Shown here one piece after another: positions 1 to 25,123 of a DNA stretch of 64,000 bases. Numbering within the stretch: the stretch's first letter is position 1; each line of letters starts with the position of its first letter. Both the position numbers and the translations under genes were made by a program. Below the pieces are notes generated by a model. The model was given only the letters and a program-made list of their open reading frames with translations, did no database searches and was not told the DNA's origin. The stretch lies in NCBI GenBank assembly GCA_964106645.2, contig OZ067039.1; one strand, 5' to 3'. The stretch is from Podarcis pityusensis. Its lineage: Eukaryota.

Positions 1-48
1 CATGCCATTTCCCACTTAAAACAGCCCTTTCATGCTGCTGTTTGCTCT

Positions 49-133
49 TAAGGACATCAGAAGAGCCCTGCTGGATGAGGCAACAGACCCATCTAATCCA
101 GCATCCTAAACTCACAGTGGTGAGCCAGATGCC
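49..133 (-). mobile_element. CR1 LINE 3' UTR terminal fragment
   Basis: Reverse complement GGCATCTGGCTCACCACTGTGAG..AGGATGCTGGATTAGATGGG..ATCCAGCAGGGCTCTTCTGATGTCCTTA matches the lizard CR1 3' end; the same motif is on the + strand at 28370-28450. Confidence 0.7.
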
Positions 134-138
134 ACCAT

Positions 139-180
139 TAAGGAAGGACCATAGCTCAGTGGTAGAACATTAACCTTGCA
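139..180 (+). repeat. 42-bp direct repeat: duplicated tRNA-like head of a Squam3 SINE (other copy 1001-1042)
   Basis: taaggaaggaccatagctcagtggtagaacattaaccttgca vs taaggaaggatcatagctcaatggtagaacattaaccttgca, 2 mismatches; contains the Pol III A box TAGCTCAGTGG. Confidence 0.9.
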
Positions 181-382
181 CTATTCATTATATTGAACTG
201 TAGATTTCAACAGAAGTAACTCAAAGTTCAACGAAAAAAGTAGAAGACCCAGTGGATCAGTTCATTCTCTAATCAGTTTATGCATAAGGTCCATATATGT
301 GAAAGTGTCTGTTCCACCTGTCTGTTCATAAAGTCCAGCAATCCACACGCAAGGTTGTTGCAGTTCCACAGAATCCCTTCAC

Positions 383-456
383 AGAGTCTAAGACAAGGAT
401 TTCTGGAATAGTAGCCTTGTTTCGCCGTCTTGGGCTTCATCAGTAGTACAAACTCT
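383..456 (-). ncRNA. Putative type I hammerhead ribozyme
   Basis: Minus strand: AGAGUUUGUACUA-CUGAUGA-A-GCC(CAAGAC)GGC-GAAA-CAAGG(16 nt)CCUUG-UC^UUAGACUCU. Conserved core, stems II and III and GUC cleavage triplet are present; stem I is imperfect. Confidence 0.7.
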
Positions 457-492
457 AGGTAATGCAAATAAATACAATATCGTAATCTCACA

Positions 493-892
493 GAAGGCTG
501 ATCACCGAAGAATTGATGCTTTTGAATTATGGTGCTGGAGGAGACTCTTGAGAGTCCCATGGACTGCAAGAATATCCAACGCATCCATTCTTAAGGAAAT
601 TAGCCCTGAGTGCTCACTGGAAGGACAGATCCTGAAGCTGAGGCTCCAATACTTTGGCCACCTCATGAGAAGAGAAGACTCCCTGGAAAAGACCCTGATG
701 TTGGGAAAGATTGAGGGCACTAGAAGAAGGGGATGACAGAGGACGAGATGGTTGGACAGTGTTCTCAAAGCTACAAACATGAGTCTGACCAAACTGCGGG
801 AGGCAGTGGAAGACAGGAGTGCCTGGCGTGCTCTGGTCCATGGGGTCACGAAGAGTCGGACACGACTTAACGACCAAACAACAACAACAACA
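493..892 (+). mobile_element. Bov-B (RTE clade) LINE, 5'-truncated 3' fragment
   Basis: Encodes RVPWTAR.SN.SILKEISPECSLEG..LKL.LQYFGHLMRR.DSLEKTLMLGKIEG.RRRG..WRALVHGVTKSRTRL; in-frame TGA at 734-736; (ACA)n tail; 9-bp TSD aatctcaca at 484-492 and 893-901. Confidence 0.97.
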
Positions 893-1002
893 AATCTCAC
901 ACATTTTCACAGCAAAATTAATATAAACACTGTCAACAACTGTACATACCATATATGATATCACACGACAGTGTATCTTACAGCATAATAGTAGCTGCTG
1001 TA

Positions 1003-1190
1003 AGGAAGGATCATAGCTCAATGGTAGAACATTAACCTTGCATGCAGAAGGTCCCAAGATCAATCTCCAAATACAACTGGGAGTAATCCCTTTCCTGAAA
1101 CCCTGGAGAGCCACTGCCAGTCGAGGTAGACAGCGCTGAGCAAGTTGGACCAATGACCTAACTAGGTATAAGGCACCTTCCCATGTCCCC
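1003..1190 (+). mobile_element. Squam3-type tRNA-derived SINE
   Basis: tRNA-like head (TAGCTCAATGGTAGA..TTGCATGCAGAAGGTCCC), body GAAACCCTGGAGAGCCACTGCCAGTC..GTAGACA, CR1-like tail GGTATAAGGCACCTTCCCATGTCC. Confidence 0.85.
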
Positions 1191-3760
1191 TGTAGAATGC
1201 AAAGAAACACTCTTCCCACTTGCGATTCTCAGCAACTGGCCATCACACTGCCTCCAATGGTGGCCACAAAGTCATTTGTGACCAGGAGTCATTGACAGAG
1301 AAACTCCCGAATGGTGAGGCTAATACCAGCAGGGCTTATCCAGCGGATCTTAGTAAGCCATGTTCACATAGGTGCGCACTAAGGTATGCAACCAGATGTG
1401 CTGACACAGCACCCATCTAGCACCAACAAACCTCCATGTAGGCATGTCCTCAGTTAAGGCACTTAACACATGTAATTGGATTTTAATGGCTCAAAGGCCT
1501 CCACACTGGAGATACTGAAGTATGGCAGATCAAAGAGGCTAAGGAAAGCACTGTCCCTTTAATCCTGCATCAACTAATATCTTCAAGGTCTACAAGTGCT
1601 TAGATATTTTATTTATGCAAGTGGCTGCAGGGCACTTGATGGATGCAGCAGCTGCTGTCCCTCTGTGACTCATAGGTGCCTCCCCTCAAGACGTTTGATA
1701 TTCCTGTCATCCCCTCACTCCTAAGGCTGCAAGTGTTGGCAAGCAGACAACTGAGAAGAATTCAGAGTGTTGAGAGGCAGGAAGTGGGCGCCGAAGAGGC
1801 CCTTTCAGGAGGAGGGAATCCTAGTCCCTGCCATACCAAGAATATCACAGCTGCTCCCCCTGGAAATGCTTCTCCTCTTATCACAGGCTCTAATCAATGA
1901 ATCGGTTGAGGTCCGTTGGCTTCCACAGCAGCCACCCACCCAATGACACCTAAATATTTCCCTCCTCCAGGAGACAAAGAAGAAGGAAGTGGGGCCTGGT
2001 TCTTGTCAAGCAGCTGGGCTGACAGCTTTACAACCACACTTGGGAGAGGAGCTGAAAGGAGGAGCATTAGATTTAATCAGTGCTGACAGGGATAGGTGAT
2101 GAATATTTTTATAGTGGAGGAAATGTATCGAGCAGGGGAAATTAGACCGAAAGATGATAAGGATCTCAGCCTGACAAAGCCAATTAATTGCTGTTTACAA
2201 ATGACCGAACCTGATAGATCAAAGGCAATGCACTTCTTTTGTACTGGAAGTCTTGGCTTTCCAGTGTTGCTCGCAAGGCTTCCATTCCAGGAGGAATGCT
2301 CTAAATGCTCAAATATGTGTAGCCTGGTATTTGAGGGTTAATCTGTCTATGAATAGTGGTTCTTCAGACAATGCCTGGAGGATCTGAACTTTACCCAGGC
2401 ACCGAGGAGACACTGAAGAAAAGCCCCACAGAGTCCTGAAATGCAGGATAAAATTTTAACGTTGAAAATGCATGCAGCGCTGGGATTAATGTGAGCATCT
2501 CATATTGAGAGGTACAGCATGAGCATAAACAAATGCAGAATGTGTGAGACTGAATACAGGCAGCAGGGGGGAAAATATGTGGAGATACAGGACGATATAT
2601 CACTATATATGAGGATGGATGGACAGAGTGACAACATTAATTAACTGATGGGTATAATTTTGAGCTAGCTCATTAATGAATAATGAAAATGTGGATTTTA
2701 AGAAGCTTAATTGCAACAACTCTCAGTGAAAAGCTGTTCAGTGCTGACAGCATTTCACAGAATCTCCATGCATCCCTTGATCTTGGAAACATGTTAATGA
2801 AATTATTGGATTTCTATCAAGCGATAGTGACATTTTATCTTTATAAATATGCTCAGAATCTCACCTATGTTAAGGTCCATGAAGTACTCATGTCTGAAAT
2901 GAGGCTATGCTATGCCCAATCTATACATTATTTTAGCATAGATTCAGGGATCTATGCGGTATTACACAGGCAGTTTGTCCCAGGGAAACAATACAGGATA
3001 GATAGGTATAGAATAGATCACTTGGTACCTGGAATGAAATTTCCTCTATGATTCTGTAATGCCCTTTGAGCTAAAAATATTTGTTGGCAGGTTATTTTAT
3101 ATTAACTTTTTTATTAGACTGCTAAGTACTTAACTAGGAAGTAAACCCCATTGGACATAATGGAACTTACTTACGAATAAGCATGCATAGGATTGCATTG
3201 TAAATTCCCTTTATCTTCTCCAAACTTAAATGGGCTGAACAATGCAATTTTTAAATTATTATTTTTATTTGTTACCTAGAAAAGAATTATTCCACCACCC
3301 CAATTCCAAAAACTTGTGACATATGGTTGCACCGACATTGACATAGGAGATATTATTTTGCTCAAGTCTCTACTGCTTTCCACTGCTCAGATGCTGAATG
3401 CGTGAAATGCACCCTCCATGACTATATTCTACTTCTGAAAAAACTGCAGCCTTTTGAGTGTGGGCTCCTTGCCAGAGATGGTAAATCACCTTTAGAAGAC
3501 AGCTCTCTGTAACAATAACTGCTGCTAGCAAAATCTATCCATAGTGTTGCAACACCATTTAAGAACATCGACTATAGCTTATCACACAAAGCACAATATA
3601 AGCAAGAGCAATCTTGATGTCACCAACAATAGAGGCCAGATCGGCCAATTTGAAGCTGAACAAGGGAGTTCTCAAAGTCTAGAACTCATCAAGATTACAA
3701 CCCCAATGGCTTTTATACGATACATTAATCCATAGAAAACTTAAGAGCCCAAACAGAAAG

Positions 3761-3943
3761 GAAGGGTTGTAGTTCCATGACAGAACATCTGTTTTGTGAG
3801 CAGAAAGCCTCTGGTTCAATCCCTGATATTTCCAGGCAGGACTGGGAATGTCCCATATCTCAAACCCTGGAGAAGGCAGCAAATATAGACAACAATGAGC
3901 TAAGTGAGCCAGTGGTATGATTTGGTATAAGGCAGCTTCTTAT
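3761..3943 (+). mobile_element. Squam3-type SINE, degenerate
   Basis: B box GGTTCAATCCC, AAACCCTGGAGA body, GGTATAAGGCAGCTTCTTATG tail; colinear with 1003-1190. Confidence 0.75.
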
Positions 3944-4854: not shown

Positions 4855-7136
4855 GGTACAGCATAGCTGCTTCAGTTTCAACAGAATTTACCTTCTCAGT
4901 GCACAAGCATCTGTTCTTACCAGAACATAAAAGACCAGGAAGGAGGGAGTGTTACAAAGAGTCCCAGTGGAAGCATGACAGGGGTAGGGGAGGAATTTAA
5001 CACTCCTGGAATTAATAGCTAGGAAATGGGTGGAGGGGTGCAGCTGATGTCATCATAGTCTGGAAGAAGGAAATTGGTGAGTGAAATGAAAAGGTCTCCA
5101 ATACTGACCCTGTCTGCATAGAGGCTCAGAATAGGCCTAAGAGCATAGCTTGAGGTAGATGACTAGCATCCCACCTCTCTACAGATTTATCTCCTTACTA
5201 CACCTAAAAGCAACATCCAGAAGCTCCTATGTTTAGAAGAAATACCAATAACAAAACAACAGCAAACTCTTATTAAGCCAAATCTGAGTCAAGCGCCCTT
5301 TTTAAAAAGTGTGTTTGGCAGCCTTTCCTGAAGACTAGGTGAGATGTAACCACATGGTTCTCCTTTGGGAGATAATTCCACAGATCTGGGTGATAGCAGT
5401 AAAGGACAGAATGACAATTTTATCTCATGTAATGATCATACTTTGAGAGAAACCTATGTTAGAGATCTTGACAGGAGCTGGAGCCCATGTCAGCATAGAC
5501 CCACATATTAAGAAGGCAAAAACTTAGGCAGAAATCAGAGGCCTAACCTGCTGTAAAGAAAGAAGGGGCAAAAATCTAATGGTTGTCAAAGTGGCTAAAA
5601 CCAGCCCTGCACATTGGTATTTATTAAGAAAGCAATTTATCATTAAAATTACTAAAGGCAAATTCAGGATAAAGTAGGTAATTTGAATATTCAGCCTATT
5701 CCCACATCAGACACTACCAAAAAGGGGGGGGGGGGACAGAATTCAGCATAAACTTTGAATATGTTTACATATAGTTGTAAGGTTAGAAATGATTGCAATA
5801 ATTTAAATAGAAATACAATGCATCTCACCATAACAGAAAGAGCTTTGACCAGGTGACTTGCTGGTGTGTCGTCCAAGTGCCACTTCAAGGTTCCTGCTCT
5901 CCTTTTCATCAGGCTTAAACAGGCTTGGACCAAACAGCCTTCAAATAGAAGCCCATGGCCACACCACTTCCTACTCTGTGCACATTTGTTAGGCAGGAAT
6001 GTGAATGTTGCATCAAAACATGAATGGGCAGAAAGCAAAACCCATTGTTGTCGAGTTGCCATTTTTTAAAAAATACGAACATAATATCAACCTACTGTGA
6101 GCCACACTGGTTTGTCTGAAGCCAAACAGCTGCCAATTATTCAAATGAAAATCCTCATTACCTTAGTAAGCACTTTGGTTTCTTGGAGACAGATTTGACA
6201 CGCCAATTCATTTGCTTGCTTCTTTTGTATAATGGTACTCCATTTCGAAGACCAGGCACAAGAGCTTTTCTACCTGAGTGGAAAACCAGGCTTTGAAGAA
6301 AAGAAACAAAACTGGGATTGTTATCTAAACTTTCTTATCTTTGAACGAGCCCTCCTGAGCACAGTTAAAGAGCTATTCTATTAAAAAAACCCAACTTTGT
6401 ACAGTTACACTTTGCGAGGGAATGTATGGCACTGGTTTAGAAAACAGGGGAGGGAGGTGTGATTAAAGTCACTTGCTGATTCCAGAGAATTGTTGTTCAA
6501 TCCAGTCCTTAGGGTCATTTTAGCTACAGCTCTGGGAATTTATGTCACTGTAGCTAAAGCAAGTATCCTGGATGAGGCAAGTGGGGCTATTAAAATTAGT
6601 CCTTTAAGGCTTTGTTACTTAAAGTGATCCTCAGCATAGGGATGCTGTACTAGTAGTGCAGGAAGTCTGGAGTTTCACTGAGGAGTCTTAAAACTTTACT
6701 CAGTGAGCTATTGATAGACACACCCTAAAAGCCAAGAAAGCTTCCTTGAATTTTAGAGCTGCTGTACCCTCAGTAGAAGGTCAGGTCCCTAACACAAGCA
6801 GGAAGAGACGGCCTTCCTCTGCATTGCTCTTGCGCACAACAGCTCATAGCATTAACTCTCCCAGACTTGCAATGTTCAAAGTTTGCAAATTTCATACACA
6901 AACAAACTGCAAAAACCTCCTCTCACACCCATTAAATCTTTACAGCTTCAATAGATTTGGTTTGTTGGTTTTGCATTTACATAATCAGAAGATTATGGAC
7001 TTCATCTTATGCCATCTTTAAGGTGCCACAACACTGTCTATAATCAGAAGAATCACATCCAGCGTTCAGAAATGAGGCAGTTGGTTTTTTTCCTCCCTTG
7101 TTTGTTTCTTTGAATATGAGCAAAAATCTACCATGG

Positions 7137-15563: not shown

Positions 15564-18131
15564 CACCCTCATCATCATTATCATCATCATCATCATCATC
15601 ATCATCATGAAAAATCAGTCTGCAAGATTTAGAATCATCCATTCAAGCATGGAAGTCATCACCTGGTGTTGCATGTGTGAACCTGTTCTCTGACTTGGGG
15701 ATACACAGAACAAAGCTTTATTTGACATTATGTTCTGCCCTACTTCAACCCAGTTAAACACCACACTGGAAAACTGACACATTCCCCTCCCCCCCACACC
15801 TTCAAGTCATTTCTTTGACTTTGAACAAATGCTTTAAAATGTTTTGCTGGACTCTGTCTTACAGCCCAAAGTGGCTGCATTCTGCAATTCATCAGACTCT
15901 TATTAAGATAAGGGAACCTTTCTCTGTGGATCCTTCTTCTTCCTCTCATTGAAACCTGCTTTATTGTGTCCCCACTGAGCAAAAGGGTTTTCAATCAGTG
16001 ATTTGTGGCTTGAGGATGCGACCAGCTCTGTCCTTTCCCAGTTATTTTAGCAGCCCATGGGGAAGTGAGGGTGTCAAGATTAGATAAATCGGAATTCTTC
16101 CTCCAGCCTATCTGATCTCTGCTTGGGTTACAACTAACATCCTATTGAAACAAGGTTAACAATGAGTTGTGGAGCAAGCAGCTCTCTGTGAGGGAGGATA
16201 AAGTACATCATGATAGACTGTGTTAGTTTTGCTTCTCAGGCAAGTGACAGAATTTATGACTGGAGAAGATAAGGATATATCAGTTGCTCGTGGAAGACAA
16301 AACAGCTTTTCCACACACACAAAATGAAGAAAACGTTCTGATGACTTAGGATGCAAGTGAGGAAGTAGGAAGAAAAGCTGGACAAGCTCCAGCATCATTT
16401 TGTAACTAACATGATCAAGCAAAGTGACCCTTGGTTTGTGATGGAATTCCACCACCACTCCTCCCAGGTTTTGACATGCAGCACAGCCTCCCACTTCCAG
16501 AATGAGTAAGAGTTAGCTGTTTCTATTTTCAGGCTTAATTACGTCTCTGCCATGCCCACAAGCATTTATGGAAAGCAAGAGAGCGAGACATACTCAGAAA
16601 CCCAAGGAGGAAATTTTAATTGATACAAAGGCAGCCAAAATTGATTCTGGTTGGCACGCAATGTGCGGAACTCATCATGCAAACCTTGGGCCGCCTCAGG
16701 CTTGGATTTAAAGCTTCGAGGTATCATTGAAAAAGGTGGGTGCTCTGGCCAAATAGCTATTTTGAGGGCTTTGCAACAGCTCCCTTGTTAGCTTCAAGAA
16801 TGCTCTGGCTCCTGCTATGGCCAGCCTACATCCCTATTCTGGTTCTTAAAGGCTGCAGTCTGCAAAAGGGAGTTATGTCAGATCATATGATAAGGAGCTG
16901 GCTGCACCTTTTGGTCAGTTTCCACCCCTGAACCCATGTTCCTTATCTTTCGCTTAGCCTGTATTGAACAAAGTGTTGGACTAAAGGAACCTTCAACCAC
17001 CAAGTTCTAACACAACCTATATGTTCACAAATGTTAGTTTTAAAAGCCTGAGTTGCCATGCCTACATAAGTCATAGGAAGAACCTTTCCCACTATTAGAT
17101 TTTAAAAAAATTATTATCAGTATCCACCTCTTGGCTTGTTTCTACCTGTTTTTTTGTTTTGTTTTTTGGAAAGTTTTCAATTATGAATCTCCCATTTATT
17201 TACCCCCAGGAGAGAGCAAGCAACCCATCCTGTTTGTATTTGCATCAATGCAGTCTATCCAACTGTAGATTATTACTGATTTCCCCCCTCTAGATGAAAA
17301 CAGAATTCTCCACAGGATCTTAGATACACAGAAACCTTCACACCCACCCTGTCCCCAATGCATCATCTGCCATGCTACACAGATTCCTCTACCTAAAACA
17401 CCATAATTGCTAATCCCCTTTGGGGTGGGGTGGGGGGACGGACAGGCTTCTAAGTAGAGAGAAATAAAATAAATGAAATGAAGGCGATCTCTGATTACCA
17501 TACATGAGCTGGCCTCCTTCTCTCTCCTCCCTCCCCTTTCACAGACATCCCCCTGCAACAATGCAAGAGACCGGAAAGGAGAGCAAGCACCCACCCTCTC
17601 CTTTTCAGGCCTAAAGAAATCACACTCCATTTCAAGAGCCCTGGTTGCCTAGTTCTCTTTGGGCCTAAGCACATTGTTCTGGAAGAAGGCGTTTGCAGTT
17701 CAAATGCCCGGAGCTCAGTAAACCAATAAACTTAAGTCACAAGAGAATCCTGAAGAAGTTGAGCCACTTGCGCAAATAAGAAGCCCCCCTCCTCCTCCTC
17801 CCCACTCCTCCTTTCCCCCCTTTTTGCTGGGAGTTGCAGAGCAGCCACTAGACAAGAGAACGAGAGAGCACTTGTGGGGCTGAGAGCTTTTCACTCAATG
17901 AAGTCCAAACAAACATATCCACCCCCCTCCCTTTTAGGTGATGCCTTTCTGCAAACACACTGAATGTCCACACAGAAGGGAGGGTGCAAATTTACTTAGG
18001 GAGCCAGACCTTGCTCCCTTTTCCCTACCTGCCTTCTGCATAATGTTGACCCAAGATATTTTGATGCAAAAGAGTGGCCTTCTACATGGCGCCCACAGTA
18101 GAGCTGAATGAACCAGGGCTGTTGTTTAGTT

Positions 18132-24567: not shown

Positions 24568-25123
24568 AATTCCTTCCAGTAGCACCTTAGAGACCAACTA
24601 AGTTTGTTATTGGTATGAGTTTTTGTGTGCATGCACACTTCTTCAGATACACTGAAACAGAAGTCACCAGACCCTGATATATAGTGAGAGGGTGGGGAGG
24701 GGTATTACTCAGAAGGGTGGTGGGAATGGGTGATTGGCTGATAGGTGTGGTAAACCTGTTGACGACTGTTAACGACTGCAATTGGTCTTACAGAAAAAAG
24801 CAATAGTGAGATGGCTAAAAATAGCTTTATCATGTATAATGAGATAAGAATCCAATGTCTCTGTTCAGACCAGGTCTCTCCATGGTTTTAAGTTTGGTAA
24901 TAAGTTGCAATTCAGCAACTTCTCTTTCCAGTCTATTTCTGAAATTCTTTTGTAATAAGACAGCTACTTTGAGATCTTGTATAGAATGTCCTGGGAGATT
25001 GAAGTGTTCTCCTACTGGTTTCTCTGTCTTGTGATTCCTGATGTCAGAGTTATGTCTATATATCCTTTTGGCGTAGGGTTTGTCCTGTTTGTCCAATATA
25101 GAGAGCTGAAGGGCACTGTTGGC
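24568..25123 (-). mobile_element. Penelope-like retroelement (PLE), 5'-truncated: GIY-YIG endonuclease remnant plus pseudo-LTR
   Basis: QQCPSALYIGQTGQTLRQ (1-nt frameshift) RIYRHNSDIRNHKTEKPVGEHFNLPGHSIQDLKV..LEREVAELQLITKLKT..PGLNRD; the downstream non-coding region has a hammerhead motif and the GTTGGTCTCTAAGGTGCTACTGG end. Confidence 0.93.
24613..24650 (-). ncRNA. Degenerate minimal PLE hammerhead ribozyme
   Basis: GUAU-CUGAAGA-A-GUGUG(CAUG)CACAC-AAAAA-CUC-AUAC; the expected GAAAGCUC reads AAAAACUC, so it is probably inactive. Confidence 0.75.

Follow-up and report, generated by a model that had tools for sequence, protein, structure and literature searches.

Near the start of the 64,000-nt window of Podarcis pityusensis DNA analysed here (the window denotes this entire stretch), a short non-coding insert interrupts an old tRNA-derived SINE and lies between two copies of the SINE head. 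This arrangement raises the question of whether the insert is a small self-cleaving element in its own right or a fragment of a larger one, and how its flanking duplication arose. A repeat search identified positions 139–180 and 1001–1042 (both on the plus strand) as the longest direct repeat within positions 1–3000, with 40 of 42 nt identical (95%), and the flank-repeat score of the locus was 34 vs. at most 8 for mismatched-flank controls (60 draws). The local duplication proposed in a preliminary description of the window was thus reproduced. Since TAAG at the right junction (1001–1004) is compatible with the element and the target alike, the length of the target duplication is 38–42 bp; element and target overlap by 4 nt at the right junction and by 1 nt at the left junction.

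The head of the old SINE, which we take to be Squam3, occupies ~142–180 of the left copy, and the remainder of the SINE target follows the right copy at 1043–1190 (plus strand), with 71–75% identity to SINE pieces at the loci L113, L034, and L008. A paralogous SINE head at 3763–3834 matches the tRNA model of Rfam, and ARAGORN detected no tRNA gene in the window. Between the two copies of the duplication, the 5' part (902–1004) and the 3' part (181–492) of a pseudo-LTR, identified below as Neptune-type, are found on the minus strand. They are separated by a nested, later retroposon fragment of 400 nt (493–892, plus strand), presumably Bov-B, which is flanked by the 9-bp duplication AATCTCACA at 484–492 and 893–901, so that the whole nested insertion spans 484–901. 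No tandem repeat was found within window positions 1–3000. Removal of the nested repeat leaves 411 nt, the length already given in the preliminary description, and this remainder aligns unbroken to other copies in the genome.

A search of the same genome (1.5 billion bases) with positions 181–492 returned 454 candidates, the best 40 of which were scored and showed 87–95% identity. Other copies extend past both ends of the insert, by 87 nt at one end and into a frame for a GIY-YIG endonuclease and a reverse transcriptase (RT) at the other. The insert is a piece of the 3' UTR of this element and begins ~325 nt after the endonuclease stop codon. Longer copies enter the endonuclease frame with a CxxCxxC linker, CPC, and two histidines: the linker CGHCTSC and CPC...H...H (CCHH motif) are present in L033, L039, L041, and L051, and the linker reads CGSCNVC in a young family described below. 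In the accessible part of the study by Craig et al. (2021; PMC8557442), a CxxCxxC-type linker marks either Neptune or Nematis. Because a more distant Penelope-like element (PLE) family likewise has such a CX2-5CxxC linker, this feature alone does not fix the Neptune clade. The broken frames of the longer copies are 39–52% identical to an intact 749-aa RT plus GIY-YIG frame in the same genome (40% for one endonuclease fragment), and RT was located by tblastn in the older copies L083 and L084. For the intact frame, Pfam RVT_1 scored above the cut-off and GIY-YIG slightly under it (21.6 vs. 22.6 bits), and the single database homologue found has the same two domains. A Pfam scan of four old-family fragments matched neither RT nor GIY-YIG, the window copy itself contains no ORF, and the old family yielded no intact master copy. 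A head-to-tail tandem of pseudo-LTR, ORF, and pseudo-LTR was seen neither in the 78 loci compiled below nor in L083, L084, and L124, with only ~3 kb covered per locus.

To judge from these sequence features, the insert is a copy of an old Neptune-type PLE that consists of 3' UTR/pseudo-LTR only, and not a self-contained element; the clade is assigned by linker and domain features, of which the linker also fits Nematis. The window copy is most likely inert. The expectation of a protein-free, hammerhead-bearing unit derived from a PLE, with a partner encoding RT and GIY-YIG, was borne out, as the partner frames were found by extending the copies. The proposal of an undescribed mobile system was not: the insert is the pseudo-LTR of a Neptune-type PLE, which the preliminary description had itself named as an outcome that would speak against it (catalogue status aside), and thus an ordinary member of a known PLE kind.

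The pseudo-LTR of the family bears a predicted type I hammerhead motif, a feature of EN+ Penelope-like elements. Within the insert, where a hammerhead had been announced, the motif was found by pattern and conservation on the minus strand at 383–453. It comprises CTGATGA (443–437), a single unpaired A, a 3-bp stem II, GAAA, a 5-bp stem III plus core pair, and GTC; the core occupies 443–437 and 423–420, stem I is weak, and cleavage is predicted between 392 and 391. The assignment relies on pattern and conservation, because the hammerhead families of Rfam gave no match at 383–453, neither at the gathering score nor at E values up to 10. The minimum-energy fold of 365–465 is not the hammerhead (z = +1.16), and covariation in the stems was no higher than in shuffles (182/500). 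The core is invariant across 13 aligned copies, including older subfamilies that are only 65–70% identical elsewhere in the UTR, and paired cells amount to 100% in stem II and 88.6% in stem III. Across the 78 loci, copy ends do not coincide with the predicted cleavage site, and two hammerheads on the same strand were not found in any locus (0/78). A flank sequence used to query RNA runs had no match in any of them.

These 78 loci were compiled from a first genome search (29 of 30), a second one (8 of 30), a junction search (4 of 10), and 37 fetched regions, leaving aside same-place duplicates, L019 (a segmental duplicate), and the second search's older subfamilies. Near-identical flanks were observed for L016 and L019, a segmental duplication on contig C19, and for L090 and L106, an unplaced duplicate on C268; L106, which repeats the flank of L090, was dropped only in the analysis of ends without a called duplication. 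The outer 3' ends correspond to a long terminus in 49 loci and to a short one, ~36 nt further inside, in 24; four loci end elsewhere and for one no end was found. Two RT start sites explain the 3' tail in the accessible part of a previous study (Frangieh et al., 2024; PMC11167929). Alignment of the genome copies showed that the window copy has neither terminus and lacks the last 87 nt (51 nt if counted from the short terminus). Of the insert ends originally given, the right one proved to be a true family boundary, whereas the left one (181) is not a family end, as normal copies run 51 or 87 nt further. The 87-nt clip is without a clear parallel among the loci, L021 and L025 being split by nested inserts; L008 is probably deleted internally and would therefore provide no parallel either. 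Bov-B-like fragments recur in the family: in L021, L028, and L103 they are located at an AT-rich spot that matches window positions 181–183, the site of the clip, and they are also present within the copies L001, L003, L025, and L026.

Inverted 5' pieces occur in 25 of the 78 loci, 23 of these together with a duplication, while head-to-tail tandem copies, for which the preliminary description had recommended a search, are absent (0/78). Duplications were called at 36 loci and 42 loci gave none. Apart from the 42 bp of the window, all 35 are 11–18 bp long (mode 14, with twelve of exactly 14 bp), and a gapped search in 400-nt flanks identified no other duplication of at least 20 bp at the remaining 77 loci. 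An unusually long target duplication is thus not a trait of the family, with one locus in 78 reaching 20 bp, and the window copy is an outlier twice, in its 42-bp duplication (1/78) and in its missing last 87 nt.

The 5' ends are spread across the 78 loci, indicating 5' truncation, and 31 loci begin at reference positions 842–862, a region that was not included in the searches that picked most loci. The window copy is among them, with its start at ~1000–1004. This cluster lies ~25–30 nt below a TATA-like CATATAAC present in longer copies and, judging from that position, likely represents the RNA start. A variant that lacks ~80 nt internally and never reaches the ORF accounts for 23 of the 31 cluster loci (24 of the 78 overall); the window copy retains this segment. 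The variant measures 390–420 nt, has been amplified, and carries its deletion just upstream of the hammerhead (L017, L018, L021–L023, L028, L029, and 17 more). It can be considered a candidate non-autonomous PLE subfamily, and its source may be a master element that encodes no protein or, alternatively, the upstream pseudo-LTR of an autonomous master.

A preference for tRNA-like targets, as had been suspected, did not emerge from these loci. Only the window copy is located in a tRNA-derived head (1 of 36 called sites), and one further site is found in a SINE body (L008). SINE-like sequence accounts for at least 0.3% of the locus sequence and 0.8% of the window sequence, and two SINE sites are slightly above this lower-bound expectation. 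The SINE-element junction gave no other scored match (41 matches from the best 40 of 295 candidates); a chimeric SINE-PLE family was considered and rejected, as the junction was found once among the scored matches. The SINE head contains TGCATGCA, and its presence suffices to explain the insertion at the window site.

Modelled empty sites of the family are palindromic outside the duplication and follow the pattern TG[CAT]N-(14 bp)-N[GTA]CA. In the twelve 14-bp sites, G at position -3 and C at +3 are found in all twelve, T at -4 in ten, and A at +4 in 11. The motif TGH-N16-DCA is present at 20 of 35 sites and missing from 15, compared to a mean of 0.5 and a maximum of 5 for random pseudo-sites (2000 draws), and other spacings in the range from 10 to 26 gave 0–7 sites. 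The positions of the signal played no part in calling the duplications. Among 40 ends without a called duplication, TGH was found 34 times at offsets 15–20 vs. 12.5 expected, which is a broad peak at offsets chosen post hoc. Two copies (L013 and L017) had inserted at one identical spot in paralogues of one older repeat, and this spot corresponds to the TGCC that ends the fragment of the repeat at ~57–133 of the window. A young Neptune-type family, ~45% identical to the old one in protein, shares the signal: seven repeats called in 17 loci comprise six of 14–15 bp and one long repeat, and G-N18-C is present in five of the six short duplications. When the 14-bp sites of both families are pooled, G is found in 32 of 32 half-sites. 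For the more distant PLE family, 17 duplications of 10–13 bp were called in 20 loci, none of them with the TG[CAT]N signal, and a weaker AC/GT bias was observed (13 of 22 half-sites at each position).

The copies of the young Neptune-type family (L123, L125–L140) are more than 99% identical and exhibit two termini, a short hammerhead motif in the 3' UTR, and a 749-aa open frame without a clear start or N-terminus; the family has probably been active recently. In L123, a Gypsy-like gag hosts a young copy, on either side of which lies one unit of a 180-bp repeat (92% identity; 1541–1720 and 4887–5068); many of the differences are at CpG, and a canonical TGCT-N14-GGCA site marks the beginning of the repeat. 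This may be a second long duplication or the product of recombination between paralogues. A third, abundant young PLE family (L145–L164) has frames of 921–951 aa, duplications of 12–13 bp, and weak AC/GT symmetry, and an endonuclease-end fragment of it occupies window positions 24833–25121. Positions 16919–17068 of the window align weakly by tblastn (30%, E 5e-4) with the GIY-YIG region of the young family and may represent a remnant of an old PLE.

A palindromic landing signal with a 14-bp gap suggests a dimeric endonuclease that makes coupled nicks. A broader model can be proposed, for which we see about equal reason for belief and for doubt: Neptune-type PLEs would integrate by means of a dimeric, sequence-reading nuclease, each GIY-YIG subunit of which would read TG[CAT]N and nick beside it with a fixed 3' stagger of 14 nt. 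Each nick would prime RT at one or the other start site, yielding inverted and one-tailed insertions. Spacing would be family-specific (13 bp with the weaker AC/GT bias in the distant family), the rule is perhaps general, and the window copy would represent a case with a missing partner half-site. With a 3' stagger of 13–14 nt, the two nicks come to lie on the same face of the helix, separated by one turn more than in the 2–3-nt overhang of GIY-YIG homing enzymes. Such a same-face stagger would suit the dimer predicted for PAc, the Poseidon element of Anolis carolinensis (Frangieh et al., 2024; PMC11167929). In the main texts of openly accessible articles, which the literature search covered, a palindromic target consensus for PLEs was not found, and relative to these texts the palindromic target signal with fixed spacing is new here.

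For the window locus, we regard it as quite probable that a pseudo-LTR-only copy of the old Neptune-type PLE arrived, likely by target-primed reverse transcription at a half-site in the SINE head, and that an aberrant second join likely gave the 42-bp duplication. This retains the earlier reading of a retrotransposed insert as the most likely one, the right end being a true family boundary. In this scenario, the RNA would have started at the pseudo-LTR promoter and its hammerhead would have been left uncut. The GIY-YIG endonuclease would have nicked the plus strand after position 180 and before TGCA, the canonical right half-site that today lies directly 3' of the duplication (1043–1046, plus strand; score 4.77, equalled at 1.7% of window positions) and likely was the site of the priming nick. 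From the plus-strand end at 180, cDNA of the element, which lies on the minus strand, would have grown, with RT priming ~50 nt inside the usual start and running off at the 5' end of the RNA. Because TAGA, at the partner position 14 bp away, matches the half-site poorly, the second strand would have been resolved further upstream, either at a TGCC half-site (133/134) with 5–9 nt trimmed or by annealing at TAAG. The second retroposon would have inserted later. This TGCC (130–133, plus strand) is the best-scoring left half-site of the family signal (6.07), closes the older repeat fragment at ~57–133, and, as the strongest upstream half-site, lies 5 nt beyond the edge of the duplication, a location that would make it a candidate position for the second nick.

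The window copy differs from the family majority by 4.0% vs. a median of 4.2%, and two differences in 42 between the copies of the duplication are compatible with the age of the family (P = 0.35). Against the proposed course of events stands that at the left edge, whether placed at 139 or at 143, there is no half-site (scores -7.4 and -7.1) and that a weak paired site at 134–147 (TGCC/ACCA, 6.07 + 1.0) is present but was not used normally. In addition, since L123 has both half-sites and a 180-bp repeat, a long repeat would need no missing partner, provided that this is a true duplication. The left junction is bridged by contigs of the related organisms B, C, and D (33–49 letters) and E (29 letters), which implies that the insertion predates the split of B, C, and D. 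No empty allele was seen among the listed joints in the contigs of the relatives, and the pre-insertion state is thus a reconstruction; joints that skip the insert have sides shorter than 30 letters and probably derive from paralogues of the SINE. For the right junction, no listed piece of a relative bridges it by 31 letters. Microhomology priming from a subfamily bearing TGCA was also considered and rejected: L015 has TGCA before the break, but of the listed variants a single 2-nt gap is all that it has in common with the window copy. The contigs of organisms D and E lack a 244-bp repeat that lies directly upstream of the window (L001:900–1143) and represents a presence/absence marker.

Two other explanations retain the PLE origin of the sequence. 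DNA repair might have copied a piece of a genomic PLE into a break in the SINE, i.e., a templated insertion with a local tandem duplication in which the enzymes of the element took no part. Such an event would fit a copy with both ends atypical, combining the 3' clip with a long duplication at one locus of 78, and the 4-nt and 1-nt overlaps at its right and left junctions. Against it stand the 5' end within the 20-nt cluster of the family, a half-site after the junction that is equalled at 1.7% of positions, and a copy age in agreement with family activity; no near-identical donor was found among the best 40 of 454 candidates (top identity 95%), and we consider repair improbable. The long duplication might also be secondary, if an initially normal insertion with 14 bp duplicated later underwent rearrangement, with deletion of the 3' end of the element and duplication of the SINE head through replication slip or repair. 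Here, a paired TG-N18-CA site at 130–151 overlaps the left edge, and L021, L028, and L103 each carry a nested insert in the same AT-rich stretch of the element. Yet, a duplicate that abuts the element at both ends requires two extra events, the junction after 180/1042 is accompanied by a half-site of its own, and the left junction was already present in the contigs of three related organisms, which renders a later rearrangement very unlikely.

The original view of a separate, retrozyme-like family of ~410 nt, with circle replication, tRNA-like targets, and long duplications, is largely refuted and appears barely tenable. It could build on the hammerhead core, which is intact in 43 of 60 spanning copies, on the fixed 5' end, and on the internally deleted sister variant (24 of 78 loci): because the latter never reaches the ORF, short protein-free units have been amplified. 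But the unit is continuous with an RT-endonuclease element, tandem hammerheads are absent from the 78 loci, copy ends differ from the cleavage site, duplications measure 11–18 bp, and the SINE junction was found once. Insertion of a PLE pseudo-LTR by target-primed reverse transcription, followed by an aberrant second join, remains the preferred explanation.

As a dead PLE stub, the insert is ordinary in itself; the target signal matters more. Regarding the cutting and joining of both strands by PLEs, the cited papers, as far as their text was accessible, give variable duplications, target preferences that are either moderate or for AT-rich DNA, and the prediction of a dimer. With its fixed spacing, the palindromic site common to two families provides a direct substrate for an in vitro test of coupled nicking, and the genome also offers young copies with a 749-aa open frame. 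Furthermore, the signal could help curators to call PLE ends and duplications correctly.

In its hammerhead, the family resembles the minimal type I motifs of PLEs in the unpaired base between core and stem II and in the G10.1-C11.1 pair, and those of metazoan PLEs in a weak stem I and in mostly single motifs in truncated copies, as described in the accessible part of Cervera and de la Pena (2014; PMC4209133). Unlike the metazoan motifs in that text, it has a short stem II (3 bp) and a long, near-invariant stem III (5 bp plus core pair), the loop of which looks palindromic, and this stem III is closer to the large-helix-III variants of fungi and protists (PMC4209133). With the animal non-LTR retrozymes, according to the available part of a preprint (bioRxiv 10.64898/2026.07.22.740005), the protein-free units share a type I hammerhead and an origin from a PLE pseudo-LTR, and monomers occur among those retrozymes as well. 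Animal non-LTR retrozymes are tandem repeats with one hammerhead per unit in this source, whereas none of the 78 loci has two; the family fails the tandem definition because no locus carries two same-strand motifs and the ends lie off the cleavage site.

The order of RT and GIY-YIG, the CX2-5CxxC linker, the CCHH motif, the hammerhead in the pseudo-LTR, the 5' truncation, the inverted 5' pieces, and the optional 30–40 bp tail are all features of the Neptune-clade EN+ PLEs in the accessible part of Craig et al. (2021; PMC8557442). For these elements, the same text gives a variable duplication length, a moderate target preference, and a microsatellite bias; in contrast, the duplications of the family described here center on 14 bp within a palindromic signal in non-repetitive DNA. 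Similarities to PAc, as presented in the accessible part of Frangieh et al. (2024; PMC11167929), include two RT start sites and, as proposed for the present family, cutting and extension of both strands and the use of uncleaved RNA as template; a dimer was predicted for PAc by AlphaFold2, with a contact at the N-terminus. That part of PMC11167929 reports no fixed spacing of paired nicks for PAc. The hammerhead of PAc overlaps the ORF start, whereas that of the old Neptune-type family is located ~475 nt downstream of the stop codon, and PAc prefers AT-rich DNA (ATT), whereas the family described here prefers half-sites that contain G/C (PMC11167929 for PAc).
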